Part shown: positions 10,744 to 45,642 of the stretch, piece by piece | How the letters are laid out: each line of letters opens with the position of its first letter | Position numbering within the stretch: position 1 is the stretch's first letter | DNA from: Synergistota bacterium | GTDB lineage: Bacteria; Synergistota; GBS-1 | NCBI GenBank assembly: GCA_021159885.1 | Contig: JAGHDO010000091.1 | Coordinates: 318 to 64,317 of the forward strand | Reading direction: 5' to 3' | Length of the DNA stretch: 64,000 nt | Position numbers and translations under genes: made by a program | The notes under the pieces: generated by a model | The model's database searches: none | What the model saw: the letters and a program-made list of their open reading frames with translations, nothing else | What the model was told of the DNA's origin: nothing

Positions 10744-10757
10744 ACGAGCTCTCTCTC
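10726..10757. terminator. Hairpin spanning the stop codons of two convergent genes
   Basis: GAGAGAGGGCTC (10726-10737) pairs with GAGCTCTCTCTC (10746-10757): 12 bp with one G-U and an 8-nt loop. A T5 run lies a few nt downstream on the plus strand. Both arms are coding. Confidence 0.35.
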
Positions 10758-28319: not shown

Positions 28320-28339
28320 GAGAGGAGGTATTTTAAAAT

Positions 28340-29506
28340 ATGTCTTTTTACTCTCTTGAAGGCGAAAAGATAGTCTTTCTGCATCTTCCTAAGGTTGGAG
28401 GCACTACTTTAAAGGCATTTTTTTCAAAGTTTTATTCATTGGAAGATATAATCCATTTTAATTGTTTTATACCTAAGATTTATGACTTCACGAAGACTTT
28501 GCTAAAAGATTTTAAGTACAAGAAGCTCATTATGGGACATTTTCCTCTTTTAGTTGATCCAAGTAGCTTGAAAGACGCAAAGTTTATTACTTTTTTGAGA
28601 GAGCCTGTAAAGAGAAGCCTATCTTGGTATTGTTTTTCTCTTGTTTCTCAAGGAGTAGATGTGGCTCCTCCCAAAGATGTTAGGGAAAATCCAGAACTAT
28701 GGCCGGACAATATTCAAACAAGGCTGCTTTGTGGTAAGTTGGAGGGGACACTATCTGAAGCTGATTTAGAAAGGGCAAAACGTAATTTAAGTCAATTCTT
28801 TTTCGTTGGTTTAACGGAGAGATTTGACGAGTCCCTCCTCATTTTACAAAAGCTTTTGAATCTCAGGGAAGTTTATTATGGCGTCAAGCGTAATGTTACG
28901 AAGGTTACAATCCCGGTGGGTGATTTGCCTAAAGAAGTTTTAAAGCAAATAGAGGAAATCAATGGCTATGATACAGAAATTTACAACTTGGCACGCAAGC
29001 TGTTTAACGAAAGATTTAAAGAATATAAGGATGAAATATTGGCAGAACTGAGTGAATTCAGAGAAAATAATCAGGGTATGCTTGGGTGGCTGGCATCAAG
29101 TTATTTGGATCTTTTAAATCGTGTGAGATGCGCAAGAGTTTCTTTCTTGTTTAGTCTTGCAAAGCGTTTTGCTGAAGATGGGAAAGGAGAAGAAGCACTT
29201 GCTTTCTTGAGAAAAGGGATTTATCTTAGTTGGGGTATACATGTGAATGGCCCTCTTTTCCTTTATAATGAAGCTTCTGTTTGGGAATCACTGGGGGAGT
29301 TGGAGAAGGCGAAGGGTATTTTTAGAATCGTTGCCGACCATCCTTGGAGAATAGATGCTTTGAAGGGGGGAGCTTGTTATCATCTTGGATGTATAGCTCT
29401 GCGGGAGGGAGACAAAGCTTTAGCGAAGGAATACCTGCAGAGATGTTTGTCTTTCGAACCTAATCATGAGGGAGCTAAAAGGCTTCTTATCGAGCTTGGG
29501 GGTTGA
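28340..29506 (+). CDS. Sulfotransferase-family protein with C-terminal TPR-like repeats
   Basis: 5-prime-PSB-like FLHLPKVGGTTL, 3-prime-PB-like FLREPVKRSLSWY and FVGLTERFDESLLIL, as in HS6ST-like / family-2 sulfotransferases. The C-terminal roughly 120 aa is TPR-like (ALAFLRKGI..., ALAKEYLQRCLSFEPNHEGA). It is a paralogue of 39507..40643. Confidence 0.7.
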   Translation: MSFYSLEGEKIVFLHLPKVGGTTLKAFFSKFYSLEDIIHFNCFIPKIYDFTKTLLKDFKYKKLIMGHFPLLVDPSSLKDAKFITFLREPVKRSLSWYCFSLVSQGVDVAPPKDVRENPELWPDNIQTRLLCGKLEGTLSEADLERAKRNLSQFFFVGLTERFDESLLILQKLLNLREVYYGVKRNVTKVTIPVGDLPKEVLKQIEEINGYDTEIYNLARKLFNERFKEYKDEILAELSEFRENNQGMLGWLASSYLDLLNRVRCARVSFLFSLAKRFAEDGKGEEALAFLRKGIYLSWGIHVNGPLFLYNEASVWESLGELEKAKGIFRIVADHPWRIDALKGGACYHLGCIALREGDKALAKEYLQRCLSFEPNHEGAKRLLIELGG

Positions 29507-29510
29507 GGGA

Positions 29511-29914
29511 ATGAGCGAGCTTGGCTTGTTGGTAGATTCTCTTGAACTTCTTGAGAAGTTTATAACTGATGTTATGGAGGCAGAGAAGATCGTTATATTC
29601 GGTGCTTCAGGTGGCGGAAAAAGGGCATGGAGATTCTCAAGGAATTAAACAAAGAGCCAATATATTTCGTCGACAACGATTCTTCCAAGTGGGGAAAGAC
29701 AGTAGAAGGCATAAAGGTTTTACCGCCTTCTGAGCTAAAGCGAATCGATTTCGACATCATCGTTGTAGCTTCGTCTGTGGGTGAGGCTGATATAGTTTCT
29801 CAGCTTGAGAAAATGGGGTACGAGGAAAAAACCTACACGCTTGCTTTTGCAAGATTGCTTCTTTGGGCTAAGAGATTTTTTGGAAAACTGAGAAAGTATT
29901 TCCTCGAACGATAA
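29511..29914 (+). pseudogene. Stand-alone Rossmann-like GASGGGK...DND..KWGK module gene, split by a 1-nt frameshift
   Basis: ORFs 29466..29648 (...KIVIFGASGGGKRAWRFSRN*) and 29627..29914 (MEILKELNKEPIYFVDNDSSKWGK...). Adding one A to the A5 run at 29618-29622 gives GGGKKGMEILKELNKEPIYFVDND, colinear with the intact paralogue at 31890. Confidence 0.75.
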
Positions 29915-29926
29915 GGAGGTATTAGA

Positions 29927-30650
29927 ATGGAGTTGAAGAAGGGCATTTCTGCGATAGTTCATACCTTTAACGAGGAGCATAATATTCGAAATTGCTTGGA
30001 GAGCGTTAAGTGGGCTGATGAAATAGTAATAATAGACATGTATAGTGAAGATAAAACCGTTGAGATAGCAAGGGAATATACTGACAAAATATATTTCTTT
30101 GAGAGAAAGGGGTATGCGGATCCCGCGCGTCAATTTGGGATTGACCAGGCTTCTTGTAAGTGGATACTGATAGTTGATGCGGATGAAATGATACCTAAAA
30201 GGCTTAGCCAGAGACTCAAAGAAATAGCTGAAAAAGATGAGGCTGACGTAGTTTATATTCCTCGAAGAAATTTTCTCTTTGGTAAACCCCTGAAGGGGGG
30301 GGTGGTGGGGGACTCTTCAAGTAATGATACCGAGGTTTTTTAAAAAGGGTTTTTTGAAGTTTGGTGAAAAGGTTCATGATCCCATAGATGAGATATCTTC
30401 GGAGGCTAAGATACTGTATTTATGGGATGAGAGTCTGGCTGTTATTCATTTTACTTACATTGATATAAATCATTTCTTGAGAAAAGGGATTAACGGTTAT
30501 ACAACGATAGAGGCTTTAAATATGTTTGAGGGAAAGAAGGAGAAATTGGAACCAGGTTCCTTGTTGCTAAAAGCAATTGAAGAAATATTAATTAGACTAT
30601 TCCTTCAAAAAGGATATAAAGATGGTTTTATTGGATGGGGATTCATGTGA
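29927..30650 (+). pseudogene. Family 2 glycosyltransferase (WaaE/KdtX-like), split by a frameshift in a G8 tract
   Basis: The N-terminal ORF (ISAIVHTFNEEHNI..., WADEIVIIDMYSEDKT, IVDADE) ends 41 nt after the G8 run at 30295-30302. With G7 the frame continues KGGWWGTLQVMIPRFFKKGFLKFGEKVHDPI into ORF 30324..30650. Confidence 0.8.
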
Positions 30651-30753
30651 GGGAGAAAGACGTTTATAAAATTAGAGATGTATTGCTTGAGGCATCATTT
30701 AATCTTTAAAATCAGGCAAAGCTCAAGGTATTAAGCAGAGGTGCCCTATAGGA

Positions 30754-31896
30754 ATGAAGGTACTTTTCTGTATTAGAAAAGACTGGCGTACTGCTCCTGG
30801 TGGGGATGTAATTCAGATGTTGGGCACTAAAGAAGCTATGGAAAAACAGTTTGATATAAAAATCTATGTGGAAGGTAATCCCTTTATGGTGGCTAATTAT
30901 AATAATGTAAGTATAGTACATGTTTTCAATATTCAGAATATAGACGTAACTCTTAGCTTTATAGAATCGGCAAAAGCTATTGGGAAAAAAGTAATACTTT
31001 CTCCTATTTTTTGGAATTTGTCTCACGCATGTTTTGTAAATACCTTAGCTTTGATAGGAATCTTTGATCTTTCTCCTAAGTTCTACTTTTGTGAAAGGTT
31101 ACATAGGAATTTTGCACAAGTGTTTAGTGAAATCGGAACGAGGTTTTATTATTTTTCAGCTGCTTATAAATATAAAGTAAGAAAAGCTCTTAACTTAGTG
31201 GATATGCTTTTGCCAAATTCTATTGAGGAAAAGAGAATTATAGAGCACACATTTGATATGAAGGTTAAAAAATGCAGGATTGTTTTAAACGCGGTAGATA
31301 AAAGAGTTTTCAACCATAAATCTCATAGGCAAAGCTGTGAGAATTCTAAGAAAGAAGTTATATGCGTTGCAAGGATAGAACCGGTGAAGAATCAAATATC
31401 AATAATTAGAGCCCTTGAAGATCTTAAAGATATAAAGGTGATCTTGGTAGGAAGACCGAAAGAGGAAGACAGATATTATTATGAATCACTTCTTTGGATT
31501 GCACGGGAACGAGGGAATGTTGAAATTATAGAGAACCACCTCGATCATCAAGCTCTTTCAGAGCTATATAGAAAAGCAAATGTTCATGTTTTACCTTCTT
31601 TTCGAGAAAGTCCTGGATTAAGCACGTTAGAGGCTCTTTGTTGCGGACTCAATGTGGTTATTTCTGATAGAGAATTTTTACCGGTGGATACATATTTTAA
31701 GGACCTTTTAGATAAGCACGTTTTTATGTGTAATCCATATGATCCATCGTCTATTAGAAAGGCTGTCTTAATGGCATTGGAGTCCCCTCCCCCCAAGGAT
31801 TTGATTTCAGATTATATAGCTGATTGGGAAATGACAGCTCGGGAAACTTATAAAGCATATTTGGAGGTTTTAGAGGAGGCATTTGAGGGATGCTAA
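30754..31896 (+). CDS. Family 4 glycosyltransferase (GT-B, Glycos_transf_1)
   Basis: C-terminal domain with ...VLPSFRESPGLSTLEALCCGLNVVISD (E-x7-E motif region). Confidence 0.8.
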   Translation: MKVLFCIRKDWRTAPGGDVIQMLGTKEAMEKQFDIKIYVEGNPFMVANYNNVSIVHVFNIQNIDVTLSFIESAKAIGKKVILSPIFWNLSHACFVNTLALIGIFDLSPKFYFCERLHRNFAQVFSEIGTRFYYFSAAYKYKVRKALNLVDMLLPNSIEEKRIIEHTFDMKVKKCRIVLNAVDKRVFNHKSHRQSCENSKKEVICVARIEPVKNQISIIRALEDLKDIKVILVGRPKEEDRYYYESLLWIARERGNVEIIENHLDHQALSELYRKANVHVLPSFRESPGLSTLEALCCGLNVVISDREFLPVDTYFKDLLDKHVFMCNPYDPSSIRKAVLMALESPPPKDLISDYIADWEMTARETYKAYLEVLEEAFEGC

Positions 31897-32288
31897 GTTC
31901 TTTAGATATATTGGAGTATAAGTTAAGAACCTTTTTAAGTGCAAGCAAGGTTGCTATATTTGGTGCTTCTGGTGGAGGGAGACGTGCTTTACTTTTGATG
32001 AGAAAAGTAGGAAAGACTCCCATTGCTTTTCTTGATAATGATAATACCAAGTGGGGAAACCTGATTGAAGGAGTGAAAGTTTTCCCACCAACGGATTTAG
32101 GTGTAATCTCTCCCGAGGTTGTGGTAATAGCTTCAGTTAGGAGAGACGAGATTCTGAAACAGATTTATGCGATGGAATATAGCGGTGTCGTAATAGATCT
32201 TGGGGAGATGGAGCTGTTAGTTATCTGTGGAACTTTATTTAAGATCTTCTGCGATTTTTTCTGCAAACAGCATTTAGGTAAGGAGTAG
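31890..32288 (+). CDS. Stand-alone Rossmann-like GASGGGK...DND..KWG module protein
   Basis: 132 aa: KVAIFGASGGGRRALLLMRKVGKTPIAFLDNDNTKWGNLIEGVKVFPPTDL...VVVIAS. This is the intact copy of the module repeated four times in the island. Confidence 0.65.
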   Translation: MLSSLDILEYKLRTFLSASKVAIFGASGGGRRALLLMRKVGKTPIAFLDNDNTKWGNLIEGVKVFPPTDLGVISPEVVVIASVRRDEILKQIYAMEYSGVVIDLGEMELLVICGTLFKIFCDFFCKQHLGKE

Positions 32289-32291
32289 AAG

Positions 32292-33773
32292 GTGTGTATG
32301 GTCTCTTCCCCAAAGGTCTGCGTTTTAGTCCTAAATTGGAATGGATGGCAAGATACTATAGAGTGCCTTAGAAGTTTGCTTGAAAGCGATTATCCTAATA
32401 TGGAGATAGTTGTGCTGGATAACGGTTCTACTGATGACTCCATAGAAAGGATAAAGAACTGGTTTGAGGAGACCTTTTCTATAGCCTGCGTGATTTGTGA
32501 TCGGAAAGCATTGAAAGGTATAGACTTTAGGAATCACGATTTGATGATAGTGGACATTGGCGAAAATTTGGGGTATGCAGGGGGGAACAACGTAGGGATA
32601 GAGTATGCTCTATCAAGGGATGATGTGAAATATATATGGATACTCAATAATGATACAGTGGTTGCAGGAGATGCGTTGTCTCTTATGATTAAGTTGGCTG
32701 AGTCTGGCGATAAAATCGGATTAGTGGGAGCAAAAGTGCTTTTTTATGATAGCCCTGATGTTATTCAGTGTTTGGGAGGAACTGACTATATAAGGTGGAA
32801 CGGTTTTGGTAAGCCTATAGCCAGAGGAGAAAAAGAGGAGAAATTTACGGACAGCTTTGAAATAAAAGGCTATGTATATGGGGCGTGTCTTTTGCTTAAA
32901 AAAGAGGTACTTGAGAACATAGGGATGTTTGACGAGGCTTATTTCCTTCAAACCGAGGAAACGGATTTATGTTTTAGAGCTAAACAGTGTGGGTGGAAGC
33001 AAGTTTGCTGTAGCCGTGCTAAGATATGGCATAAGGAGGGAAAAGCTACTGGGAAAGAAGATGAAGGGTCACTAAGGTACTATGTTATTGGTAGATATTA
33101 TAACAGAAGGAATTACATCTATTTTTTAAAAAAGCATCTTCGGAACTATTTAAAACATGGCATTATCAATCTGCTTCTGTCTTCGCTAAAAGTATTCAAA
33201 CATGCCATGATCTGCCCTTCTCATTTTCAAGATACTTTAATTGAGTTTTTTTTCTCAATTTGGGGTTTATTTGATGGTCTGCGAGGTAATATGGGGAAAA
33301 CTCTGGATCCTGCTGAATTTGATAATAAAAATGGAGGTGAAGGAAAAACAAAGAAAATGGAGGATTTGTGGGAAGCTATAGAAGAATTTAGAGAACAGTT
33401 CAACCGCCTTGTAAGCGCGCAAAAGGTAGCTATATTCGGAGCGTCCAGTGGGGGAAAAAAAGCCTTGGCTTTTTTAAAGAAACTGAGGAAAAAGGTTGTT
33501 TGTTTCTTTGATAACGATCCTTCGAAGTGGGGAAAGAGGGTAGGGGGGATTGAGGTCTTGTCTCCTTCAAGTATTGAAGGAATTGCCCCTGATTTGATAG
33601 TTGTAGCTTCATCAACGGGAGAAGGGGAAATCGTTACGCAGTTAACTGAAGGCGGTTATGAGGATAAAGTAATGATTATCGGATTTCTCGAGCTAATTTT
33701 ATGGAGCAAAGAGCTCTTTGAGCTCTTCAGAGAAATCTATGACTATGTGCGTGAGCTGAATGCGCAGGCTTAA
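32292..33773 (+). CDS. Family 2 glycosyltransferase fused to a C-terminal GASSGGK...DND..KWGK module
   Basis: GT2 motifs (VLVLNWNGWQDTIECLRSL, VLDNGSTDDS, NLGYAGGNN, ETDLCFR). From about aa 355 (about 33354) the module reads KVAIFGASSGGKKALAFLKKLRKKVVCFFDNDPSKWGKRVGGIEVLSP...LIVVASS. Confidence 0.8.
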   Translation: MCMVSSPKVCVLVLNWNGWQDTIECLRSLLESDYPNMEIVVLDNGSTDDSIERIKNWFEETFSIACVICDRKALKGIDFRNHDLMIVDIGENLGYAGGNNVGIEYALSRDDVKYIWILNNDTVVAGDALSLMIKLAESGDKIGLVGAKVLFYDSPDVIQCLGGTDYIRWNGFGKPIARGEKEEKFTDSFEIKGYVYGACLLLKKEVLENIGMFDEAYFLQTEETDLCFRAKQCGWKQVCCSRAKIWHKEGKATGKEDEGSLRYYVIGRYYNRRNYIYFLKKHLRNYLKHGIINLLLSSLKVFKHAMICPSHFQDTLIEFFFSIWGLFDGLRGNMGKTLDPAEFDNKNGGEGKTKKMEDLWEAIEEFREQFNRLVSAQKVAIFGASSGGKKALAFLKKLRKKVVCFFDNDPSKWGKRVGGIEVLSPSSIEGIAPDLIVVASSTGEGEIVTQLTEGGYEDKVMIIGFLELILWSKELFELFREIYDYVRELNAQA

Positions 33774-34896
33774 GATCTTATGGTTTTGGATTATTCCCTG
33801 GGGTTTTATAAAACAGCGTTGCCATTATCTTGCTGAGGGGCTTTCCCGTTATCATGATTTAACTATTGTGTACCAGAAGGTTTCTTATGAAGCTTTAGAA
33901 AAGGTTCCTTCTTCCTTGAAGTTTAAAAAGGTGAGAGCTTTACCTTTTGAGCAAGGGAGCACTTTAATTTCTGCGCATGTAGCATCGTTAATGTGGTATT
34001 TTCAGGTAGCGCGTGATCTGAAAGTGAACGACATGATATGGTTTTCTCATCCTTACCTGTTTGAGGTTGTGAAATATGTTCCTTTGAAAAGAAAGTTAGT
34101 AGTTTATGACTGTGCGGATGACGTGTTGGAATTTTCTTCTGTTGCTGCGGATCCGAATGCCCGCAAGGTGATTTTATCTATTGAGAAAAAGCTTATTCAA
34201 AGAAGCAGTGTAACATTTGTTTCATCCTTTCACCTCAAAAGCTTACTCTTGGAAAGACATTCAGTAGATGAAGATAAGATTTTTGTTGTTAACAATGCGG
34301 TAGATTCTGCTTTTCTCGTGAATAGTGATTCAGCCGAAAAGCTTCCTGAGTCAATGGAGAAATTTTTTAACTTTAAAGTGATAAAGTTGGTCTATATAGG
34401 AGCTATTGCTGAATGGTTAGATATAGAACTTATATTAAAAAGTCTTAATGCTTTTAAGGAAATCCATTACTTTTTTGTAGGGCATCTTTATAAACCTCTC
34501 CCATTTCATGAAAGAATACATTATTTAGGGAAAGTGAAGCATTCTTTGCTCCCAGAAATAATGAGAAGGAGCGATGCTCTCATAATGCCGTTTAAATTGA
34601 ATAGACTGATTCTTGCTGTGGATCCTATCAAGATGTATGAGTATATCTCTGCTAACAAGCCTATCATTGCTATTGCCTATCCAGAGGTAGAAAGGTTTAA
34701 AGAATTTGTTTACTTTTATAGAAATATAGAGGAGTATTTTACTTTACTTAAAAATTGTATTATGAAGAATTTACCCCCGAAGGGTGGAGGTAAGCAGAGA
34801 GCTAACTTTATAGAAAGGAATACATGGGAGAAGAGGGTTGAGCAAGTACTAAGGATTCTCTCGGCAGTATTAGAAAGGAATAGATATCATGCGTAA
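33760..34896 (+). CDS. Glycosyltransferase, GT-B fold (GT4/TuaH-like)
   Basis: N-terminal KILWFWIIPWGFIKQRCHYLAEGL and C-terminal ...IKMYEYISANKPIIA resemble group-1 glycosyltransferases of the TuaH type (weaker recognition). Confidence 0.55.
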   Translation: MRRLKILWFWIIPWGFIKQRCHYLAEGLSRYHDLTIVYQKVSYEALEKVPSSLKFKKVRALPFEQGSTLISAHVASLMWYFQVARDLKVNDMIWFSHPYLFEVVKYVPLKRKLVVYDCADDVLEFSSVAADPNARKVILSIEKKLIQRSSVTFVSSFHLKSLLLERHSVDEDKIFVVNNAVDSAFLVNSDSAEKLPESMEKFFNFKVIKLVYIGAIAEWLDIELILKSLNAFKEIHYFFVGHLYKPLPFHERIHYLGKVKHSLLPEIMRRSDALIMPFKLNRLILAVDPIKMYEYISANKPIIAIAYPEVERFKEFVYFYRNIEEYFTLLKNCIMKNLPPKGGGKQRANFIERNTWEKRVEQVLRILSAVLERNRYHA

Positions 34897-36439: not shown

Positions 36440-36460
36440 GAGGTAAGGAGGTGGTGTTCT

Positions 36461-36949: not shown

Positions 36950-36952
36950 ATC

Positions 36953-38020: not shown

Positions 38021-38867
38021 GATAGCTATTATAGGCTCAACAGGTCAGCTTGGAAGCGAGCTTTTAAGCGAGCTTGGTGAGCGAGCGATACCTTTAAGCC
38101 ACGAGGATATAGAGATAACCGATCATGAGGGTACTCAGGAAGTTCTTTTATCGCTTTCTCCCTCCGTGATTATAAACACCGCGGCCTATCACAAGGTTGA
38201 TCTCTGCGAGGAAAACCCATTAAAAACCTTTGAGGTTAACACGATAGCTTTAAAGAACCTGGTAGAGATCTCTAATGAGCTTAACTCTCTTTTGGTTTAT
38301 ATTTCTACCGACTATGTATTCGATGGAGCTAAGAGCTCGCCTTATTCTGAAGAAGATATTCCCAATCCTTTGAACGTTTATGGGTTATCCAAGTATGCTG
38401 GTGAAATTCTTTTAAGAAACCACGCCCATAGCTATCTTATAGTGAGGGTGGCAAGCTTATTCGGAAAAGGAGGTTCCAAGTTAAAGGGCGGTAACTTCGT
38501 TCGCACTATACTTAGGAAGGCCTCTTCTGGTGAGGATCTGAGAGTAGTAAACGATATAGTTATGAGTCCAACTTATGCTAAGGATGCTTCTAAGGCTATA
38601 GTGAAACTTATTGGAAAGGGAAGAGTGGGAATTTATCATGTTGTTAATAGCGGGTATTGCACTTGGTATGAGTTTGCTAAGGAGATAGTGAGACTTGGTG
38701 GATACAATGTGGTAATTGAGGCGATAAGCTCCAGTGAGCTTCCGATGAAAGCTAAGCGCCCTTCTTTTTCGGCTTTGTCAAATGAGAAATTAAAGAGAGA
38801 TATCGGTTTTGAGATGCCGCATTGGAAGGATGCGTTAAGCAGGTATTTAGAAGAAGTTGTGTTATAA
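38013..38867 (+). CDS. rfbD: dTDP-4-dehydrorhamnose reductase-like SDR
   Basis: IAIIGSTGQLGSEL, STDYVFDG and YGLSKYAGE. The likely start is ATG 38013; the track ORF starts at 38001. Confidence 0.8.
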   Translation: MAKIAIIGSTGQLGSELLSELGERAIPLSHEDIEITDHEGTQEVLLSLSPSVIINTAAYHKVDLCEENPLKTFEVNTIALKNLVEISNELNSLLVYISTDYVFDGAKSSPYSEEDIPNPLNVYGLSKYAGEILLRNHAHSYLIVRVASLFGKGGSKLKGGNFVRTILRKASSGEDLRVVNDIVMSPTYAKDASKAIVKLIGKGRVGIYHVVNSGYCTWYEFAKEIVRLGGYNVVIEAISSSELPMKAKRPSFSALSNEKLKRDIGFEMPHWKDALSRYLEEVVL

Positions 38868-38879
38868 TCCATTGATGAG

Positions 38880-39490
38880 ATGAAGGCGCTTATACTCTGT
38901 GGAGGGAAAGGAGTACGGCTTTTTCCGCTCTCGAAGGAGAATTTCCCAAAACAGTTTTTAAAAATAGGCAGTGATCTTTCCCTTTTTCAGCGGACGCTGA
39001 GAAGGACTTTAAGACATTTGAAGTTAGATGACGTATTTATCATCACGGGCAAAAGGTATGAAGATAGGATTAAGAGCGATATAAAAGGAATTTTGGGAGA
39101 AGAGGGGCTTAAAACTTTAAGCGGGAATTTAGTGCTTGAACCAGCGGGGAGGAATACTTTCCCCGCTATTTTATTGGAAACTTGCCCGCTACCTCTATAG
39201 ACTATGCGATAATGGAGAGAACAGATAAAGCAGTTGTAATTCCTCTCGAAGTTAAGTGGTCTGATATAGGGAACTGGGAGGGCATTTATGAGATGTTAGA
39301 GAAGGACGGGGATGAAAACATAATAGTGGGGGATGCTTTATGTAAGGATGTTTTTAGGTCTCTTATCTGGGGAGGAAAAAGAAGTATAATCGTTATTGGA
39401 GTGGAGGATTTGATAGTCGTTGATGGAGAAGATGCGCTTCTTATTGCTAAGAAAGGAAAAAGTGGAGAAATAAAGACACTTATTTCTTAG
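38880..39490 (+). pseudogene. Mannose-1-phosphate guanylyltransferase-type nucleotidyltransferase remnant (internal deletion plus frame change)
   Basis: ORF 38880..39200 is the N-terminal about 100 aa (MKALILCGGKGVRLFPLS...PKQFLK...LEPAGRNTFPAI). ORF 39182..39490 is the C-terminal about 100 aa (SIDYAIMERTDKAVVIPLEVKWSDIGNWE...). The catalytic middle, roughly 130-150 aa in full-length relatives, is missing, and the two parts are in different frames. Confidence 0.75.
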
Positions 39491-39506
39491 TTAGGGGGAT
39501 GAGGCA

Positions 39507-40643
39507 TTGGTTCTTATATTTTTGCATATTCCCAAAACAGGTGGCTCATCGCTTTTATGGATCCTTCAGAGGCACTATAGATTAGAAGAGGTATTTCACG
39601 ATACCGTTTTTCAGAAGGCTGGTGATTGCTTTTTAAACGATAAGAAATTTCTACATGGGCACTTTAAATATGGCATTCACGAGCTCCTAAAGCTTAGGAA
39701 TTATAAGTATATTTCTTTGCTCAGAAATCCGGTATATAGGGTTTTTTCTCATTATTTTTATGCCAGGGAGCAGATGTTTATGAATGACAGAGAATTCCGA
39801 GATCAGGACTTGGTAAGTTGGCTTGAGAAGAACAAATCTTGGGTGTCTAATCTTCAAACCGCTTATATAAGTGGAGAAGATCACGTGGATTTAAAGGCGC
39901 TGAGGAAAGCTAAGGACAATCTGAAAAAGGATTTTTTATTTATAGGTATAACTGAGCTTTTCGATGAAAGCTTGTTAATCTTGAGGAAACTCCTTGGTTT
40001 AAAGGATATTTATTACGGTTTGCCAAGGAACGCGACTCAGTTTAAACACCTTATGGAGCGAGCTAATGAGGATCTTTTTCTGGAAGTGGAAAGAGTGAAC
40101 CGGTATGATATGGAGCTTTACGAGTATGCTAAGGATCTTTTGATGGAACATATAAAAAATTACGGGAGCGATTTTTCGCGCGATTTAGAAGAATTTAGGA
40201 AAAGAAATAGAGGAAAGGAGGGTATATTGGCTCACGCTTTAGATGTAGGCCTGAGGGAGGTAAGACGTGGAAGAGTAATTGCGTTGTTCAGAATAGCGCA
40301 GGTGTTTGCGATGAGAGGTGAAAGGGAAAAAGCATTAGCTATCTGTGATAGAGCGAGAAGGTTGGGTTGGGGACTAATCACGATGGAGCCTGATTTTATC
40401 TATTTAGAAGCCGGCGTTTATAGACTTCTTAGGATATTTAAAAAGGCGGAGGAGCTTTATATTGGTCTTGCGAAGGACGAAGGTATCGATACTCCTATCA
40501 GGGGTAAATCCTATTATTACCTTGGGGAAATTTATCTTGAAGAGGGTAAACGTGAAGAGGCGTTAGAAGCATTTAAGAGTTGCCTTGAGCTCTATCCAGG
40601 ACATGCTAAAGCTTATATAAGGCTTAAGGAGTTAGACCTATGA
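39507..40643 (+). CDS. Sulfotransferase-family protein with C-terminal TPR-like repeats (paralogue of 28340..29506)
   Basis: IFLHIPKTGGSSL, LLRNPVYRVFSHY, FIGITELFDESLLIL and a TPR-like C-terminus (EEALEAFKSCLELYPGHAKAYIRL). Confidence 0.7.
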   Translation: MVLIFLHIPKTGGSSLLWILQRHYRLEEVFHDTVFQKAGDCFLNDKKFLHGHFKYGIHELLKLRNYKYISLLRNPVYRVFSHYFYAREQMFMNDREFRDQDLVSWLEKNKSWVSNLQTAYISGEDHVDLKALRKAKDNLKKDFLFIGITELFDESLLILRKLLGLKDIYYGLPRNATQFKHLMERANEDLFLEVERVNRYDMELYEYAKDLLMEHIKNYGSDFSRDLEEFRKRNRGKEGILAHALDVGLREVRRGRVIALFRIAQVFAMRGEREKALAICDRARRLGWGLITMEPDFIYLEAGVYRLLRIFKKAEELYIGLAKDEGIDTPIRGKSYYYLGEIYLEEGKREEALEAFKSCLELYPGHAKAYIRLKELDL

Positions 40644-40966
40644 AGAGATCATTTACCCTTATGGAAGTCCTAATTGCAACCTTAATACTTGCTCTTGTTG
40701 GAGTCGGAGCACTGAGTTTGATAACGCAAAGCGTTTCTTTAATCAAAGAGTCTCAGGATGTACTTAATGCGACTCTGCTGGGAGAGAATATAGCCACAAG
40801 GGATCTTCTGGGTCTTCTTCCGCGGTGGAAGATTGAGGGGGAGCAGGGTATCTTTAAGTGGAAAAGGGAAATTTTCCCCACACAGTTACCTCGTATAAAG
40901 CTGTGCAAATATACTATAAGTTGGGAGGGAAGAAAGATTGAATTCGTCCTCGTTAAGGAGCAGTAA
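40640..40966 (+). CDS. Pseudopilin-like protein with a prepilin-type N-terminal methylation motif (GspI-like size)
   Basis: MKRS/FTLMEVLIATLILALVGVGAL gives F at +1, E at +5 and a hydrophobic helix, with Ser instead of the usual Gly at -1. 108 aa. ATGA overlap with the upstream sulfotransferase. Confidence 0.6.
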   Translation: MKRSFTLMEVLIATLILALVGVGALSLITQSVSLIKESQDVLNATLLGENIATRDLLGLLPRWKIEGEQGIFKWKREIFPTQLPRIKLCKYTISWEGRKIEFVLVKEQ

Positions 40967-43379
40967 TTTTTTAATTTTTGCCTTCTTAGGGATCCTTTTA
41001 ACTCATGGTGTAGCTTTTGGGGCGGTCTTTGAGGTTCCAAGCATGGAGTTTCCGACGGTTAGTGATGCTATTTCGGTTGCGCTTTCTAATGGAGAAGAGG
41101 ATACCATCTTTCTCGTAGATGACGTTACGGAAAGCGTGGTAATTACGATCAATGGGGTAGATGATCGCATAGTTATTGAGGGTAAGGAAGGGAAGTTTAG
41201 TATAAGCGGAAATGGAGAGAAGCAGTGCTTTAGAGTGGAGGTAAAAAGCGGGAATCTTAGTTTAACGTTGAAAGATATTATTATGTGTGATGGTTTTTCC
41301 TCTGATTATAAGGGTGGGGGAATTCTTTTAAAAGTTTCGGAAGGAGCAAGGTTAGATTTTCAAATGGATGGTGTTGAGGTTAAAAATTGTGTGAGCGGGA
41401 GTCTTGGTGGAGGACTTGCCTGTGTCAATTATGGGACGGCTACCCTTACTTTAAAGTCAAGCGTTTTTAGATGGAATCGAAGTCAAAAGTATGGTGGCGC
41501 GGTTTCCATAGATGGAGCTAACGCTCGTTTTGAAAATTGCTTAATAGCTGAGAATATAGCTTTCTACAGGGGTGGGGGAATATACGCTGTTGATGCTCCT
41601 AATCTTGTTTTAGAAAGCAGCACCGTTAGTAAGAATCAAGCTCGGCAGGGTTTTACTAAAAACGATGGAGGTGGTATTTATCTCGCAGGAAGTACTATCG
41701 CAAGTTTAAATAATGTTATAGTTTGGGGAAATGTGGGAAGCCTTTTCAGCAAGGAGATCTATGTTTCGATTGGATCTTCTCTTGAGGCATCCTATAGTTG
41801 TTTACCGTTAGAGGGAGAAGGTTGTGTTAATGAAGACCCAGCGCTTAATGATGACTATACTCTTTCAGAGGGTAGTCCTTGCGTGGATGCGGGAAATCCA
41901 CACGTTTTTTTAATAGTCGATTTAGACGGTAAACCCCGCCCTGTAGATGGCGATAATGATGGAAAAGTTTTCACTGACATCGGAGCTTTTGAAGCACAAA
42001 CTGATGTAACTCCACCCCTTGAAATTGAAATTTTAGAGGCTTCTCCTGCAACTCACAGTGTTTCCTTGAGCTGGAGTAATCCTGAGGATTCGGATTTTTA
42101 CTGTGTTAGGGTTTATTTGAGGAATAATGGTGTTTGGAATAAGCTTTGTGAACTTTTTGATGATAGTTATCTTGTTGAGGGGCTTTCTTCTGGGACGGAG
42201 TATGCCTTTAAGCTTACGACGGTTGATACGTCTGGCAATGAGAGTGATGGTGTAGTTATATCGGTTAAGACTCTTCAAGAGGAGGCTCCTGAACCTGATC
42301 CGGAACCGGAGCCTGATGTTGAGCCCCCTGATGAAGTGTTAGATCTTGCTGCGGAACCTTCAACTGATTCTATCACTTTGCGTTGGAGGACTCCATTGGA
42401 TGGAGATTTAAAGGGATGTAGAGTCTATGTGGACGGTGAGCTTTTTAAAACGATAATATTCCCTCCTTTATCGTCTTGCTCGATTAAAGTGGATGGCTTA
42501 TTAGAAAATACGCTTTACATCATTAAGATAACAACATTTGATCTAAATGGAAATGAAAGCAACGGGAAGTCGATATCTGTCAGAACGCTAAGATCTAATC
42601 TTCCTCCGGTTATAGAGCTTATAGAATGTGAACCATTAAGCGGAAGTAAGGGAACTCTTTTTAAGATAACCGCTTTGGTTAGCGATCCTGAAGGGGAAGG
42701 TATTTCATACGATTGGAATCTTGAGGATCCCACAGCAGGTATTTTAGTACCCTTAGAGAACGAGGCTTATTTCATAGCTTTCGCTTTGCCTCAGGATAGG
42801 ATGGTTTCGGTGAAACTTTGTGCTTCAGATCTCAATGGAAATAAAACGGAGGCTGAAACAGAGTTGGAGATACTCGGTGTTTCGGGCAAGGATGACGATG
42901 GTGATGGCGTCAATAACGATGCGGAAAGAGACACCGCTTTTGATCCATCTAGGGTACTTTTTTCTGAAAAAGGAATCTTAATCGAGATCGATTCAGGACG
43001 CTTTAGGAATGTTTCTCTTAAGGGAAACGATCCTTATGAGCTTTTCTTAACGATAAGCGGCATCGATACCGGTGGAGGATTAGACCTTAAAGTGGCATTC
43101 CCTCTACCTCTGAGAGATTTTTCGGTAGAGGCGTGGGAAAAAGGAAAATTTGTTAGTCGAAAGAAGGAGCTGCCTATTTACATCCTTGATGGTAGTTCTA
43201 TCGATCTTGATGGCGAGAAAAATGGAGAAATTCACGTTCTGCTTAAGCTGGATGTTGAGTATGGAGAAACAGGTGGAGGGTGCGCCATTGATCGAGGGTT
43301 TCATCCGGTAGCTTCTTTAATATTGTTCTGCCTTCCTATTTTTCTTATCTCTTTTATAAGGAAGGTGATTTCTCTCTGA
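40938..43379 (+). CDS. Secreted beta-helix (GGG-repeat, DIGAFE-type) / 2 x FN3 / PKD-like / Asp-rich calcium-type motif protein with a C-terminal TM sorting-like tail
   Basis: Signal peptide ...LLTHGVAFG/AV. Recurrent GGGI/GGAV beta-helix rungs end in DLDGKPRPVDGDNDGKVFTDIGAFE. Two FN3-like units follow (LSWSNP...YAFKLTTVDTSGNES; LRWRTP...YIIKITTFDLNGNES), joined by PEPDPEPEPDVEPPDE. The protein also has GKDDDGDGVNND and the tail GGGCAIDRGFHPVASLILFCLPIFLISFIRKVISL. Confidence 0.75.
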   Translation: MNSSSLRSSNFLIFAFLGILLTHGVAFGAVFEVPSMEFPTVSDAISVALSNGEEDTIFLVDDVTESVVITINGVDDRIVIEGKEGKFSISGNGEKQCFRVEVKSGNLSLTLKDIIMCDGFSSDYKGGGILLKVSEGARLDFQMDGVEVKNCVSGSLGGGLACVNYGTATLTLKSSVFRWNRSQKYGGAVSIDGANARFENCLIAENIAFYRGGGIYAVDAPNLVLESSTVSKNQARQGFTKNDGGGIYLAGSTIASLNNVIVWGNVGSLFSKEIYVSIGSSLEASYSCLPLEGEGCVNEDPALNDDYTLSEGSPCVDAGNPHVFLIVDLDGKPRPVDGDNDGKVFTDIGAFEAQTDVTPPLEIEILEASPATHSVSLSWSNPEDSDFYCVRVYLRNNGVWNKLCELFDDSYLVEGLSSGTEYAFKLTTVDTSGNESDGVVISVKTLQEEAPEPDPEPEPDVEPPDEVLDLAAEPSTDSITLRWRTPLDGDLKGCRVYVDGELFKTIIFPPLSSCSIKVDGLLENTLYIIKITTFDLNGNESNGKSISVRTLRSNLPPVIELIECEPLSGSKGTLFKITALVSDPEGEGISYDWNLEDPTAGILVPLENEAYFIAFALPQDRMVSVKLCASDLNGNKTEAETELEILGVSGKDDDGDGVNNDAERDTAFDPSRVLFSEKGILIEIDSGRFRNVSLKGNDPYELFLTISGIDTGGGLDLKVAFPLPLRDFSVEAWEKGKFVSRKKELPIYILDGSSIDLDGEKNGEIHVLLKLDVEYGETGGGCAIDRGFHPVASLILFCLPIFLISFIRKVISL

Positions 43380-44569
43380 ATCTTCTTTGGATAGCTCCCT
43401 ATCTCTTCTATCCCCCCAGAGCGGGAGGACAATTTTCAATCTATCCATGGGCAAAGGAGCTTTCGAGAAGGGGATGGAAGCTCCTTTTAGTTCAATATCA
43501 CTCTCCATGGGGGTTTTTATCTCGCTCTCTGAAGGGATTGGATTGGGCTGAAAATGTCATAACCATTGAGCCTCGAAGATTTCAAAGCAATATGGAGTAT
43601 CTGAGGACGCTAATTCTTTCATCGGACAGCTTTCTGAAAATCAGAAATGATGTCCCGGATATCTACCACAGGCTTAAAGAAGTGACTGAGATTTTTTCTC
43701 CTAACTTTATAGTTTTAAGCCATTCTTATATGGGCTTTCTAATCCCTTCCTTACGCAAGCTTTTTCCGGGGAGCAAGATCTTGATTGATCTTCATAACTT
43801 AGAATGGCGTGCTTATCAGAATGAGCTTTCTGAAGATGATTTCATAAAAAGGGCTATAGCGCTTATAAACTACGTTAGATTGAAGGAGGAAGAGAAAAAG
43901 GCTTTATCATCCTGTGATGGAATTATTTTCCCTTCGCCGATAGAAGGGAAATTCGGTGCTTTCTTTGAAAAGCCAATGCTGTGGAGACCTGCCCGCTTCT
44001 CGGAAGAAGGAATTTTATCTGAAGACGAGCTTTTAAGGAATCGTGATATCCTTCTTACCTCGAGCTTAAACGTGGATTTCATATGTGAGGAAATACTCGA
44101 GTTTTTAGAAAAGGTTTGGCTTAGGTATAAGAGAGTTTTTAGAAACGCTAACTTCTGGTTGGTGGGAAGAGAGCCTTTAAGCTGGTTTAGGGAGAAAGCC
44201 TCTGAGTTCGAAGGTGTTCACCTTACGGGATGGATTGATGATGTTTCTCCTTATGTTAGGAAATCGAGAATTTTTGTAGCTCCTTTTAGGAGAACTATGG
44301 GAAGTCTCACGAAAATTGTAAGTGCATGGTCGTGGGGATTACCGGTGATTACCACAACCATTGTTGCAAGGGGGTTGAAGTGTGAGCCTGGCAAGCATTT
44401 GCTGGTTGGAAGGGATTTGGATGAGCTCTTGGTTTGCTGCTTGAGAGTTGCGAGAGATGACAGGCTTGCTTTAAGTCTGACTAAGGAAGCGCGTGAGCTC
44501 GTGGATAGGGAATATTCTCTTGACGTTTTTATCAACCGTTTTGAAAGGTGGGTGAAGAAACTATCATGA
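43376..44569 (+). CDS. Family 4 glycosyltransferase (start probably non-canonical, upstream of the track ORF)
   Basis: The track ORF starts at TTG 43538. The same frame upstream encodes NLLWIAPYLFYPPRAGGQFSIYPWAKELSRRGWKLLLV, a typical GT4 N-terminus, with no ATG/GTG/TTG back to the stop at 43289. CTG 43376 is preceded by AAGGAAGGTGA. Confidence 0.65.
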   Translation: MNLLWIAPYLFYPPRAGGQFSIYPWAKELSRRGWKLLLVQYHSPWGFLSRSLKGLDWAENVITIEPRRFQSNMEYLRTLILSSDSFLKIRNDVPDIYHRLKEVTEIFSPNFIVLSHSYMGFLIPSLRKLFPGSKILIDLHNLEWRAYQNELSEDDFIKRAIALINYVRLKEEEKKALSSCDGIIFPSPIEGKFGAFFEKPMLWRPARFSEEGILSEDELLRNRDILLTSSLNVDFICEEILEFLEKVWLRYKRVFRNANFWLVGREPLSWFREKASEFEGVHLTGWIDDVSPYVRKSRIFVAPFRRTMGSLTKIVSAWSWGLPVITTTIVARGLKCEPGKHLLVGRDLDELLVCCLRVARDDRLALSLTKEARELVDREYSLDVFINRFERWVKKLS

Positions 44570-45642
44570 TTGTCAAAACTGACTGTAGGTTTTATAGGGG
44601 AGATGTTCCATGTAAGTTTCACAAGGAAGAGGGGGTCCATTGTGAGAATTGTAGATACTATGTCCCGGTTGGGAGAAAATATCTGATAGTAAAGCTTGGC
44701 GCTGCTGGAGATGTTCTAAGAACTACGCCTATATTAAGAGCTATAAGGAAGGATGATTCAGAGGCGGAGATAACCTGGGTTACTTACTATCCGGAGCTCG
44801 TTCCCTCGGGATGGGTTGATAGAATATATAGCTTCGATATGAGGGGTATTGCCTCAGTATTAGCTTCCTCATACGATTATTGTTTTTCCCTGGATAAAGA
44901 CAAGGAGGCGCTATGGCTTGCACGTGAAGCAAAAGCGGAGGTTAAAAGGGGATTCATACCGGATGAGAGAGGGAACGTTTATCCTTTGGATTTTCCCTCA
45001 AGGCTTAAGTGGTTAACTGGTCTTTTCGATGATATCTCTCGTAAAAATGAAAGGAGCTATCTTGAGGAGATTTTTGAGATATGTGGTTACGAGTTTAAGG
45101 GAGAGCGTTACATAATAGAGAGGAAGGAGCTTAAAGAAAAACCTTGGGAGATTTCGAAAGATAAGAAGGTGATAGGTCTAAATACAGGTTGTGGTCCAAG
45201 ATGGAAAGCCCGGGAGTATCCCGAGGAAAATTGGATCGAGCTTGCTAAGCTTCTTATAGCTCATGGATATGAGGTTATACTTCTTGGAGGCCCAGATGAA
45301 AATGATAAAAATAAAAGGATAGCTGAGGAGAGCGGAGCCAGGTACTTTGGGTATTTCCCTATCAAGGTTTTCTTCGAGCTTGTTTCTGAGTGTGATCTTG
45401 TTATTACAGGTGTCACTCTTGCTCTTCATGTGGCTATAGCTCTTGAGAGGAAAATAATATTGCTTAACAACATTTTTAACAAGAATGAATTTGAGCTTTA
45501 TGGCCTCGGAATAGTAATGGAACCCCCCAAGAAGTGCGTTGGCTGTTATAGAAGCTTCTGTGATGAAAAATGCATGGAGCTAATCAAGCCGGAAAGTATA
45601 TTAAGTGAAGTTTTTAGATTAACGTCAGATATTGTGGTATAA
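44548..45642 (+). CDS. Family 9 glycosyltransferase (heptosyltransferase fold) with Cys-rich N- and C-terminal extensions
   Basis: KYLIVKLGAAGDVLRTTPILRAIRK and VIGLNTGCG...LLGGPDE are GT9 hallmarks. It also has C-x8-C-x9-C-x2-C at the N-terminus and C-x2-C-x4-C-x3-C near the C-terminus. The likely start is ATG 44566. Confidence 0.75.
   Translation: MGEETIMIVKTDCRFYRGDVPCKFHKEEGVHCENCRYYVPVGRKYLIVKLGAAGDVLRTTPILRAIRKDDSEAEITWVTYYPELVPSGWVDRIYSFDMRGIASVLASSYDYCFSLDKDKEALWLAREAKAEVKRGFIPDERGNVYPLDFPSRLKWLTGLFDDISRKNERSYLEEIFEICGYEFKGERYIIERKELKEKPWEISKDKKVIGLNTGCGPRWKAREYPEENWIELAKLLIAHGYEVILLGGPDENDKNKRIAEESGARYFGYFPIKVFFELVSECDLVITGVTLALHVAIALERKIILLNNIFNKNEFELYGLGIVMEPPKKCVGCYRSFCDEKCMELIKPESILSEVFRLTSDIVV

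Follow-up and report, generated by a model that had tools for sequence, protein, structure and literature searches.

The 64-kb stretch of DNA analysed here (hereafter the window; contig JAGHDO010000091.1, assigned to a Synergistota bacterium) has a G+C content of ~0.43, a strongly positive GC skew and almost every gene on the + strand. At 28340-45642 it carries a gene island encoding two putative carbohydrate O-sulfotransferases, named hereafter ST1 and ST2, together with glycosyltransferases (GTs), sugar-nucleotide enzymes, a minor-pseudopilin-like protein and an 813-aa β-helix surface protein (Table 1). Gene order was derived from the map of open reading frames (ORFs) combined with Pfam and NCBIfam scans, and transmembrane (TM) segments were taken from a hydropathy scan; of the source genome, the analysis covered these 64 kb. 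The island is a composite, made up of a conserved surface module and a variable 12.3-kb cassette that is partly eroded. Its genes lie exclusively on the + strand, the - strand ORFs being at most 132 aa long and each nested within a + strand gene. Orientation and junctions were as the initial annotation of this DNA had described them, i.e. an ATGA overlap between ST2 and the pseudopilin gene (40640-40643), a 29-nt overlap between the end of the pseudopilin gene (40966) and the start of the 813-aa ORF (40938), a cTGA junction at 43376-43379, and a 22-nt overlap between the end of the following GT4 gene (44569) and the start of the GT9 gene (44548). The domain calls of that annotation were likewise recovered by Pfam: Sulfotransfer_2 with tetratricopeptide repeats (TPRs) in two proteins, GT2, GT4 and GT9 enzymes, RmlC-like, short-chain dehydrogenase/reductase (SDR) and RmlD proteins, Beta_helix with fn3 and a weak PKD match, and N_methyl.

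A polytopic membrane protein is missing from the island, as had also been claimed. That is, no protein with more than two TM segments was predicted between SecF (which ends at 18754) and YybS (which starts at 46720), or 18.8-46.7 kb, and the only membrane-associated products of the island are the pseudopilin (one N-terminal TM segment) and the 813-aa protein (signal peptide and C-terminal TM segment). No island ORF matched the Pfam families Bac_transf or Glycos_transf_4 of priming phosphoglycosyl transferases, and Wzx, Wzy, ABC_tran and synthase matches were equally absent among them. Reading of the ORF translations of the 64-kb window recognised no sat, cysDN or cysC gene. Rfam and tRNA scans gave no match, and the counts of predicted promoters and terminators equalled the shuffled expectation, so that nothing can be inferred from them about operon structure.

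Both ST1 and ST2 are marginal matches to Sulfotransfer_2 (PF03567; 23.7 and 24.7 bits, respectively, against a cut-off of 22), and they are 34% identical to each other across their full length. In ST1 the sulfotransferase domain spans residues ~8-245 and a TPR tail residues ~295-388; neither protein has a TM segment or a signal peptide. The initial annotation had read in both proteins the two loops that bind 3'-phosphoadenosine 5'-phosphosulfate (PAPS), namely the 5'-PSB loops LHLPKVGGTT and LHIPKTGGSS and the 3'-PB motifs REPVKRSLS and RNPVYRVFS, and profile and structural comparisons bear out this reading. In an alignment of ST1, ST2 and 18 database homologues, the columns H15, K18 and G21 of the 5'-phosphosulfate loop and R87, P89, R92 and S95 of the 3'-phosphate motif were invariant in all 20 sequences. 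The family profile matched heparan sulfate (HS) 6-O-sulfotransferase (HS6ST; 5t03) at 5e-25 and HS 2-O-sulfotransferase (HS2ST; 4ndz/3f5f) at ~1e-17 to 3e-18, and these alignments include the loops FLHIxKTGGTT and LRxPVxRxxS. The fold was modelled for ST1 with AlphaFold2 (AF2; pLDDT 89.2, pTM 0.86), and the best PDB match of the model in Foldseek was HS6ST with bound 3'-phosphoadenosine 5'-phosphate (PAP; 5t03, E 2.9e-5), followed by cytosolic sulfotransferases (SULTs), the C-terminal third matching TPR proteins. Sequence, profile and fold together make ST1 and ST2 credible PAPS-type carbohydrate O-sulfotransferases, with predicted activity.

An exhaustive HMMER search placed the two proteins in a family of 6913 representative clusters at E<=1e-3 and 2117 at E<=1e-10, and we know of no characterised member in this large bacterial branch of the HS2ST/HS6ST-like family. 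The initial annotation had called bacterial sulfation systems of this kind rare; the sulfotransferase family itself is not rare, and the type of island described below is rare, though recurrent. In 29 genomes, the four genes closest to a family member encode mainly GT4 (15/116 proteins) and GT2 (11/116) enzymes, further sulfotransferases and methyltransferases, in line with a function in sulfating glycans, and now and then a Wzy_C, Wzt or ABC protein. A polytopic protein (>=6 TM segments) was encoded within 7 kb in 27 of 45 ordinary sulfotransferase loci. In a plasmid collection, sulfotransferase homologues came only from Priestia (tail-less, ~31% identity, uninformative context), and the TPR tail alone gave no match when used as query against that collection.

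The C-terminal TPR tail proved to be shared well beyond the sulfotransferases. Over its final 87 residues, ST1 shares 41% identity (E 4e-15) with the C-terminus of a 673-aa GT4-like protein (GT-TPR673) encoded by a related locus, L086. The catalytic domains of the two proteins differ, and both genes occupy the same position, after the gene of a 734-aa protein without family (U734) or its orthologue. Alignment of 13 such tails from four catalytic families defined a segment of ~75 aa with two TPRs, located at the extreme C-terminus and with the consensus L..Y..AS..K.LG....A...F...(about 10)...GAYFHLGEIAL..G....A...F..CL...P.H.KA...L. A hidden Markov model (HMM) of the tail recovered ST1 at 2.1e-33 and ST2 at 2.2e-31, and scores above 100 bits were confined to loci of one type (tail-type loci), as opposed to at most 45 bits, i.e. 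weak generic TPR matches, in 80 ordinary sulfotransferase loci. Among the best 150 family representatives, eight sulfotransferases end in the tail (P0001, P0397, P0413, P0456, P0467, P0468, P0506 and P0514). The tail was seen on sulfotransferases, GT2, GT4 and GT8 enzymes and B12-radical-SAM enzymes, that is, on enzymes of at least five chemistries. The closest database homologue of ST1, P0001 (L001 10001-11158; 39% identity, same tail), is encoded by a gene that stands alone, 3' of dnaX, dnaE, pfk, pyk and fpg and 5' of an ArsR-type regulator gene, with no GT gene within 10 kb upstream.

A second domain recurs among the proteins of the window. It is a Rossmann-like domain of ~100 aa, named hereafter Ross, of which four copies were found: in a 95-aa ORF that lacks the N-terminal GxGxxG part, in a stand-alone 132-aa protein, and at the C-termini of a 493-aa GT2 (HMM match to residues 359-483) and of a 516-aa protein (residues 396-516). 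Ross is weakly similar to PglD_N, to the C-terminal domain of sugar C-methyltransferases and to C2185-like_N, and on these sequence similarities it is related to NDP-sugar-binding domains. In sister islands, a B12-radical-SAM enzyme bears the tail, and Ross forms part of radical-SAM/SPASM proteins as well as of a TagF-like one (L099 1-589 and 4149-5771; L095 11471-12652). With tail or Ross on radical-SAM and TagF-like enzymes, these two tags are not confined to glycosyltransferases.

Seven other tail-type loci were compared, all of them metagenomic fragments of which 4-21 kb could be seen and some of which end at the island edge. Each encodes between one and six tail-bearing enzymes. In L092 (G+C 0.52) the tail occurs on a GT4 (717 aa), on two or three GT2 enzymes, on a sulfotransferase and on an upstream gene fragment, and the locus also encodes a B12-radical-SAM enzyme, two TagF-like Glyphos_transf proteins and a weak Ross match. 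In L093 (G+C 0.35) it is found on a GT8, a GT4, a 711-aa homologue of the 673-aa protein and a sulfotransferase, accompanied by a GT-like protein with a Ross-like C-terminus and by RmlC, RmlD and a GT4. L095 (G+C 0.41) has two tail-bearing sulfotransferases, two GTs of ~660 aa with C-terminal Ross domains and a Ross-radical-SAM/SPASM protein, whereas the 4.3-kb contig L096 (G+C 0.35) has a tail-bearing sulfotransferase followed by a GT4. The tail HMM matched a GT2, a sulfotransferase and, internally, a 1345-aa GT4/GT2 protein in L097 (G+C 0.45). The gene preceding these in L097 is of the asparagine-synthase type and has Pfam TPR matches, only its edge (1-62) lying inside the examined DNA. In L098 (G+C 0.43) the tail is carried by a GT4, a GT2 and a sulfotransferase, a second GT2 has an internal HMM match, and a Ross protein is also encoded. 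Finally, in L099 (G+C 0.47) the C-terminal tail occurs on a B12-radical-SAM enzyme, a GT4, a GT2 and a sulfotransferase, a second GT2 has an N-terminal HMM match, and Ross is present on a radical-SAM enzyme and on a Glyphos_transf protein. By HMM scan, Ross domains were thus present in L093, L095, L098 and L099, as well as in the loci L086-L088 of relatives, weak in L092, and not detected in L096 or L097.

Inside the seven tail-type islands, none of the ORFs was predicted to have more than two TM segments. Homologues of U734, of the pseudopilin or of the β-helix protein were also absent from their 4-21 kb, and no pilin or flagellin gene was seen in them, implying that the association of the cassette with the β-helix module is specific to the lineage of the window. 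With its two tail-ended soluble enzymes, ST1 and ST2, and the co-occurring Ross domain in four copies, the cassette belongs, as judged from sequence comparison, to a rare but recurrent and phylogenetically scattered class of exporter-less islands with tail-tagged enzymes. The initial annotation had held that the locus does not look like a standard O-antigen or exopolysaccharide (EPS) locus. This is upheld by the soluble TPR-fused enzymes, by the lack of an exporter over at least 28 kb and by the same design in six other metagenomic islands, likewise without exporter in the 4-17 kb seen.

The 813-aa protein consists, in order, of a signal peptide, a right-handed β-helix (choice-of-anchor Q), two FN3 domains, a PKD-like domain, a GGC motif, a TM segment and a basic tail, and its full-length homologues are confined to its own lineage (P0145, 80% identity; P0146, L087 and L088, 43-48%). 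Its C-terminus (43260-43379), with a conserved GGC, 8-12 residues, one TM helix and a basic end also seen in L086 and L088, looks like a Cys-type C-terminal sorting signal. NCBIfam sorting-domain models gave no match to the three orthologous C-termini even at E<=10, leaving an assignment as Synergist-CTERM or MYXO-CTERM unsupported. The pseudopilin passes the N_methyl (21.8 bits against 21.2) and TIGR02532 (18.0 against 16.3) thresholds, with the cleavage motif RS|FTLMEVLIA, i.e. Glu at +5 and Ser rather than Gly at -1; its orthologues in L085-L088 are 55-87% identical.

Upstream of the cassette, the AAA-ATPase has orthologues of 64-67% identity at the same position in L086 and L088, and U734 has orthologues of ~731 aa and 39-40% identity in L086-L088. 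The AAA and U734 pair lies at 3998-7225 in L086 and at 2483-5774 in L088. U734, which has β-rich ends and a helical middle, had no Pfam, NCBIfam, PADLOC or PDB match, and its AF2 model, built from three close sequences, reached a pLDDT of 34.5. U734 or its orthologue is encoded upstream of the first tail-bearing enzyme in all relatives, and directly so in the window, L086 and L087: its stop codon and the start codon of GT-TPR673 overlap in L086, whereas a 473-aa ORF separates the two genes in L088. A defence-system reading of the pair and of the island was rejected, PADLOC giving only weak P-loop and coiled-coil matches.

The gene order in these relatives is aminotransferase, EpmA and EF-P (both on the - strand), AAA-ATPase, the U734 orthologue (U731), the 473-aa ORF in L088 only, GT-TPR673, a Ross protein of 128-134 aa, the pseudopilin, the β-helix protein, a GT4 and rpsF. 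GT-TPR673 is soluble in L086-L088, without TM segment or signal peptide, and the L086 Ross protein upstream of the pseudopilin is 39% identical to the 132-aa Ross protein of the window. The β-helix gene and the GT4 gene are tightly coupled in all lineages, their stop and start overlapping or abutting. In L086-L088, the module of pseudopilin, β-helix protein and GT4 thus occurs without any sulfotransferase or sugar-nucleotide gene, and the 12.3-kb block 28320-40639 of the window occupies the slot of the 673-aa gene. This cassette has a G+C content of 0.395 overall and of 0.381 at 29.5-36.45 kb, compared with 0.433 and 0.448 in its flanks. The slot differs even in L085, the closest relative, with its nucleotide identity of 83-94%: the ST2 gene (window 39485-40648) is absent, the L085 DNA aligning at 39250-39484 and then again from 40649, and the ManC remnant stands directly before the pseudopilin gene. 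Synteny, G+C content, the ST2 indel and the disrupted GT2 and ManC genes described below together turn the initial picture of an island wrapped around the β-helix protein into that of a variable cassette inserted beside a conserved surface module. The view of one island dedicated to the 813-aa protein is not sustained, given that relatives with 43-48% identity in that protein keep the module without sulfotransferases. Co-occurrence of TPR-bearing sulfotransferases with a β-helix protein, suggested as a check, was not seen in the 4-21 kb of the other tail-type islands.

Several cassette genes are disrupted. The GT2 gene at 29927-30650 is split by a +1 frameshift in a G8 run (30294-30301); with G7 in place of G8 the two ORFs join (...KGGWWGTLQVMIPRFFKKG...), restoring the usual ...GGW...RFFKKG... 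continuation. Slipped-strand phase variation affecting a surface-glycan gene could explain this, as could a pseudogene that has become fixed or a mistake in the assembly. The ManC match covers positions 1-92 and 208-242 of the 245 of the NTP_transferase profile, so that ~115 middle residues (~93-207) are missing and the gene is regarded as a remnant; its C-terminal piece is also present in L085. The RmlC-like protein scores 43.5 against the 155.75 cut-off of TIGR01221 and is recognised at Pfam level only, and the 355-aa SDR protein is ambiguous between GalE and a dehydratase. The dTDP-L-rhamnose set of the island is therefore incomplete in the Pfam and NCBIfam scans, with no RmlA, no clear RmlB and no intact nucleotidyltransferase.

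The conserved GT4 gene after the β-helix gene, whose best NCBIfam match was TIGR03087 (a GT of PEP-CTERM/XrtA systems; 1.9e-20, below cut-off), lacks the TTG start of L085, which reads TTC here. Its 54 N-terminal codons are still open and conserved, the frame being open back to a CTG at 43376, and translation may start at this CTG, overlapping the upstream TGA. The GT9 protein scores 51.3 bits against 22 for PF01075, a family-level match only. No NCBIfam equivalog for a lipopolysaccharide (LPS) heptosyltransferase was reached, the best being TIGR02193 with 54.2 bits against a cut-off of 185.3, and phmmer matches in the PDB (E<=1) were WaaF, WaaC and one uncharacterised GT9 structure (3tov), without any TibC chain. 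We therefore rejected GT9 as a bacterial autotransporter heptosyltransferase (BAHT) of the TibC/Aah type. Its position after the GT4 gene was seen only in the window and in L085. GT9 also has four cysteines in its first 35 residues (C13, C22, C32 and C35; 44548-44700) and a C-x2-C-x4-C-x3-C cluster near its C-terminus (45540-45600), which are absent from the WaaC and WaaF structures and may be metal-binding sites.

Table 1. Genes and features of the island and its immediate flanks (coordinates in the window)
Feature	Coordinates	Strand	Evidence
AAA/ATPase_2 P-loop protein, left flank of the locus	25011-26039	+	Pfam PF01637, 5.7e-37
U734, soluble 734-aa protein without family	26115-28319	+	no family match
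ST1, carbohydrate O-sulfotransferase domain (predicted) and C-terminal TPR tail	28340-29506	+	Pfam PF03567
Truncated Ross-domain ORF, 95 aa	29627-29914	+	alignment with other Ross copies; repeat family D1
GT2 in two pieces, frameshifted	29927-30343 / 30324-30650	+	Pfam PF00535, 1e-20 on first piece
GT4, 380 aa	30754-31896	+	Pfam PF00534, 7e-20
Stand-alone Ross protein, 132 aa	31890-32288	+	PglD_N / Methyltransf_14 C-terminal-domain-like
GT2, rhamnosyltransferase-like, 493 aa, C-terminal Ross domain	32292-33773	+	PF00535; TIGR01556, 7.6e-22, below cut-off
GT4-like, TuaH-like glycosyltransferase (GT4_378)	33760-34896	+	NF047676, 2.1e-25, below cut-off; weak Pfam GT4
Weak GT4-like domain and C-terminal Ross domain, 516 aa	34889-36439	+	Pfam/NCBIfam; Ross HMM
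RmlC-like epimerase	36461-36949	+	Pfam PF00908, 5.5e-20
SDR epimerase/dehydratase, 355 aa	36953-38020	+	Pfam PF01370, 4.3e-38
RmlD reductase	38001-38867	+	Pfam PF04321, 2.6e-84
ManC-type sugar-1-phosphate nucleotidyltransferase remnant, two ORFs	38880-39490	+	Pfam NTP_transferase, partial
ST2, second sulfotransferase (predicted) and TPR tail	39507-40643	+	Pfam Sulfotransfer_2
Minor-pseudopilin-like protein, 108 aa	40640-40966	+	Pfam N_methyl; NCBIfam PilV/GspI-like
813-aa surface protein	40938-43379	+	Beta_helix, two fn3, weak PKD-like
Conserved GT4 after β-helix gene	43376 (CTG) or 43538 (TTG) to 44569	+	frame conserved with respect to L085; TIGR03087 below cut-off
GT9-family glycosyltransferase	44548-45642	+	Pfam PF01075, 1.3e-13
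rpsF, ssb, rpsR, yybS, rplI, dnaB, ctsR, mcsAB, clpC, in this order downstream of GT9

Amino-acid composition and relatives suggest that the source organism is an uncultured thermophile. Its ClpC is 94% identical to proteins of metagenome-assembled genomes (MAGs), 85% to proteins labelled Synergistetes or 'bacterium', and 65-70% to those of thermophilic Firmicutes. In the left flank (23445-24922, - strand), EF-P adjoins an EpmA/PoxA-like truncated lysyl-tRNA-synthetase paralogue, and the pair is kept in L086 and L088; its conservation implies β-lysylation of EF-P in this Firmicutes- or Synergistetes-like lineage. The neighbouring gene at 22536-23444 (- strand) encodes a 302-aa protein in which near-perfect tandem repeats (…AEAQKQTEKRLSELAEAQKQTEKRL…) make up a long coiled coil and the C-terminal domain is globular, its PADLOC matches being coiled-coil artefacts only. 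Further upstream, a saccharopine-dehydrogenase-like gene (10740-11859, - strand) is apparently split into ORFs of 195 aa and 159 aa separated by a 52-nt gap, which may be due to a frameshift, a pseudogene or an assembly error.

The reading that we prefer, with a probability of roughly 0.45, is that the conserved surface module is accompanied by a variable-slot cassette of tail-docked cytoplasmic enzymes building an O-sulfated glycan, most likely on a protein. The cassette carries two predicted sulfotransferases, five or six GTs and 6-deoxyhexose-type sugar-nucleotide enzymes, which would act in the cytoplasm and be docked by their shared tail on one common partner. There the glycan would be assembled stepwise and then O-sulfated from PAPS, and with the RmlC-like, SDR and RmlD proteins and the rhamnosyltransferase-like GT2 the product is expected to be a 6-deoxyhexose-containing glycan with O-sulfate. 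The lack of a flippase, an ABC exporter or a priming enzyme in any such island favours a protein as the partner and acceptor, presumably one with an export route of its own; candidates are the adjacent β-helix protein or the pseudopilin, or else a flagellin or S-layer protein encoded elsewhere, with U734 as a candidate scaffold. The tail is read as a docking device because TPRs are protein-binding modules, as exemplified by two precedents: the TPR domain of FlmG is necessary and sufficient for binding its flagellin acceptor (PMC7591256), and Ogt, a TPR-GT41 enzyme without secretion signal, is needed for PilA glycosylation (PMC9306852). By analogy with these TPR-bearing GTs a protein acceptor is plausible, and a tail common to the enzymes that initiate, elongate and decorate the glycan would be expected if all of them visit one partner. 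The sequence comparisons show the identity and solubility of the enzymes, the common tail, the synteny and the indels; the docking role, the protein acceptor and the sulfated product are each inferred.

A number of observations weigh against this reading. The acceptors named above are candidates only. The β-helix protein and the pseudopilin bear Sec- and prepilin-type signals, respectively, and proteins are seldom glycosylated in the cytoplasm ahead of Sec export. No obvious acceptor gene is present in the 4-21 kb seen of the other tail-type islands, and several of these islands encode TagF-like Glyphos_transf and GLF, as lipid-linked wall polymer loci typically do. TPRs also organise polysaccharide machineries, as judged from LapB, PelB, BcsC and PrsT-like matches. 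Furthermore, two cassette genes are disrupted, only 64 kb are visible, such that exporters, a priming transferase and PAPS synthesis may be encoded elsewhere, and the comparison loci are fragments, some of them cut at the island edge.

Alternatively, the enzymes may make a lipid-linked surface glycan (LPS/O-antigen-like, capsular or teichoic-like) that is sulfated on the cytoplasmic face, with priming, export and ligase genes elsewhere and the tails only holding peripheral enzymes together at the membrane. The gene content, i.e. GT2, GT4 and GT9 enzymes, RmlC, RmlD, low G+C, a poly-G frameshift and pseudogenes, is that of a variable polysaccharide locus; GT4_378 resembles TuaH and the conserved GT4 resembles EPS glycosyltransferases of PEP-CTERM systems; and the nearest named relative is labelled Synergistetes, which is a diderm phylum. 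Ordinary members of the sulfotransferase family often lie near Wzy_C, Wzt/ABC genes and polytopic proteins, related tail-type islands encode Glyphos_transf and GLF, and cyanobacterial sulfotransferases work in Wzx/Wzy clusters, often 'partial' ones (PMC8205485). On the other hand, an exporter or priming enzyme is absent within 28 kb here and inside seven other tail-type loci, compared with a polytopic neighbour in 60% of ordinary loci, known Wzx/Wzy and ABC pathways do not mark six classes of enzyme with one C-terminal tail, and the locus of the relatives has just two GTs, beside secreted proteins. A lipid-linked product is possible, if somewhat less likely than the reading that we prefer.

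A special case of the protein-acceptor reading, in which the whole island is dedicated to glycosylating and sulfating the 813-aa protein, appears quite improbable. ST2 through GT9 are co-oriented and overlapping, and a tail-bearing enzyme, a Ross protein, the pseudopilin, the β-helix protein and the GT4 are neighbours in all four lineages. Moreover, β-helix passenger domains of E. coli are heptosylated in the cytoplasm by GT9-family enzymes, as in AIDA-I/Aah and TibA/TibC. Here, however, GT9 resembles WaaF and WaaC instead of TibC and is not adjacent in L086, the 813-aa protein has a Sec signal peptide, the β-helix module does without sulfotransferases and sugar-nucleotide genes in L086-L088, ST2 is missing in L085, and the other tail-type islands have no homologue of the β-helix protein, the pseudopilin or U734. 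The frameshifted GT2, the truncated Ross ORF, the ManC remnant, the GT4 without canonical start and the incomplete sugar-nucleotide pathway could also mean that the island is the decaying relic of a glycan cluster gained by horizontal transfer, for the most part non-functional and without a present-day product. This is very unlikely, considering that thirteen other ORFs are intact with conserved catalytic motifs, that ST1 and ST2 retain all invariant family residues, that other samples contain ST2 and U734 in near-identical form, and that misassembly or phase variation may account for the G8 frameshift. Returning to the tail-docked cassette, a stronger version of it would make tail and Ross complementary docking tags that join sulfotransferases, GT2, GT4 and GT8 enzymes, radical-SAM and TagF-like enzymes in a soluble cytoplasmic assembly line, which builds sulfated glycans on proteins without lipid carrier or exporter, its client here being the pseudopilin/β-helix module; we consider this version rather unlikely.

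Were the assembly-line version true, these islands would form a hitherto overlooked class of bacterial systems that glycosylate and sulfate proteins, scattered across the phylogeny. The recurring design, with the same short TPR tail on enzymes of at least five chemistries (an asparagine-synthase-type enzyme with TPRs, seen only in part, would be a sixth) and an exporter never present in the islands seen, is of wider interest: if the tail is a docking device, the acceptor could be found by pull-down, pathway membership could be predicted from sequence, and site-directed sulfation or glycosylation could be engineered. If the glycan is lipid-linked instead, sulfated surface glycans would still be extended to deep-branching thermophiles. 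The two sulfotransferases, a compact set from a probable thermophile, should be stable and expressible. Genetic documentation of sulfated bacterial glycans is almost only cyanobacterial, yet the HS2ST/HS6ST-like family has thousands of uncharacterised bacterial members. Sulfated glycans have been described as not reported in bacteria other than cyanobacteria (PMC8205485).

The catalytic parts of the island and TPR-bearing protein glycosyltransferases are of already known kinds. A literature search gave no description of HS2ST/HS6ST-like or other bacterial sulfotransferases fused to a conserved TPR tail, nor of one tail on GT2, GT4, GT8 and radical-SAM enzymes in one island, of its co-occurrence with Ross, or of a systematic lack of export genes. 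ST1 and ST2 resemble the HS 6-O- and 2-O-sulfotransferases (Sulfotransfer_2 / Gal-3-O_sulfotr type) in their PAPS loops and predicted fold, but they are bacterial and soluble, with a catalytic domain of ~240 aa, no Golgi anchor and a C-terminal TPR tail. The island shares with O-antigen, EPS and teichoic loci the mix of GT2, GT4 and GT9 enzymes, RmlC and RmlD, the low G+C, a homopolymer frameshift, pseudogenes and strain-level indels, and differs from them in lacking a priming transferase, Wzx/Wzy, an ABC exporter or a synthase within 28 kb and in having tail- or Ross-tagged enzymes. As in the synechan xss cluster of Synechocystis PCC 6803, which directs a rhamnose-containing sulfated glycan, two sulfotransferases are combined with many GTs (PMC8205485). 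The xss cluster, however, is cyanobacterial and includes Wzx, Wzy and a PCP, of which the island has none, and no TPR tails are reported for it, whereas the island derives from a thermophilic Synergistetes-like MAG; with ST1 as tblastn query (E<=1e-5), the plasmid collection yielded neither XssA nor XssE. In the Aah and TibC systems a GT9-family gene is likewise close to a β-helix surface-protein gene, but the surface protein of the island is C-terminally TM-anchored and not a β-barrel, the position of GT9 is not conserved, and GT9 has no detectable sequence similarity to TibC. In Listeria, GmaR is a TPR-glycosyltransferase of cytoplasmic protein O-glycosylation. FlmG of Caulobacter and Ogt of Synechococcus also combine TPRs with a catalytic domain in a soluble enzyme and need no flippase, and Ogt acts on a pilin. 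In the window and in L085-L088 a pilin-like gene adjoins the tail-bearing enzymes, and none was seen in the other tail-type islands. Unlike the GmaR, FlmG and Ogt systems, the island has no GT41 or Maf enzyme, and no flagellin gene lies in the window, and its TPRs form a short conserved C-terminal tail that is common to many enzyme classes, including sulfotransferases.

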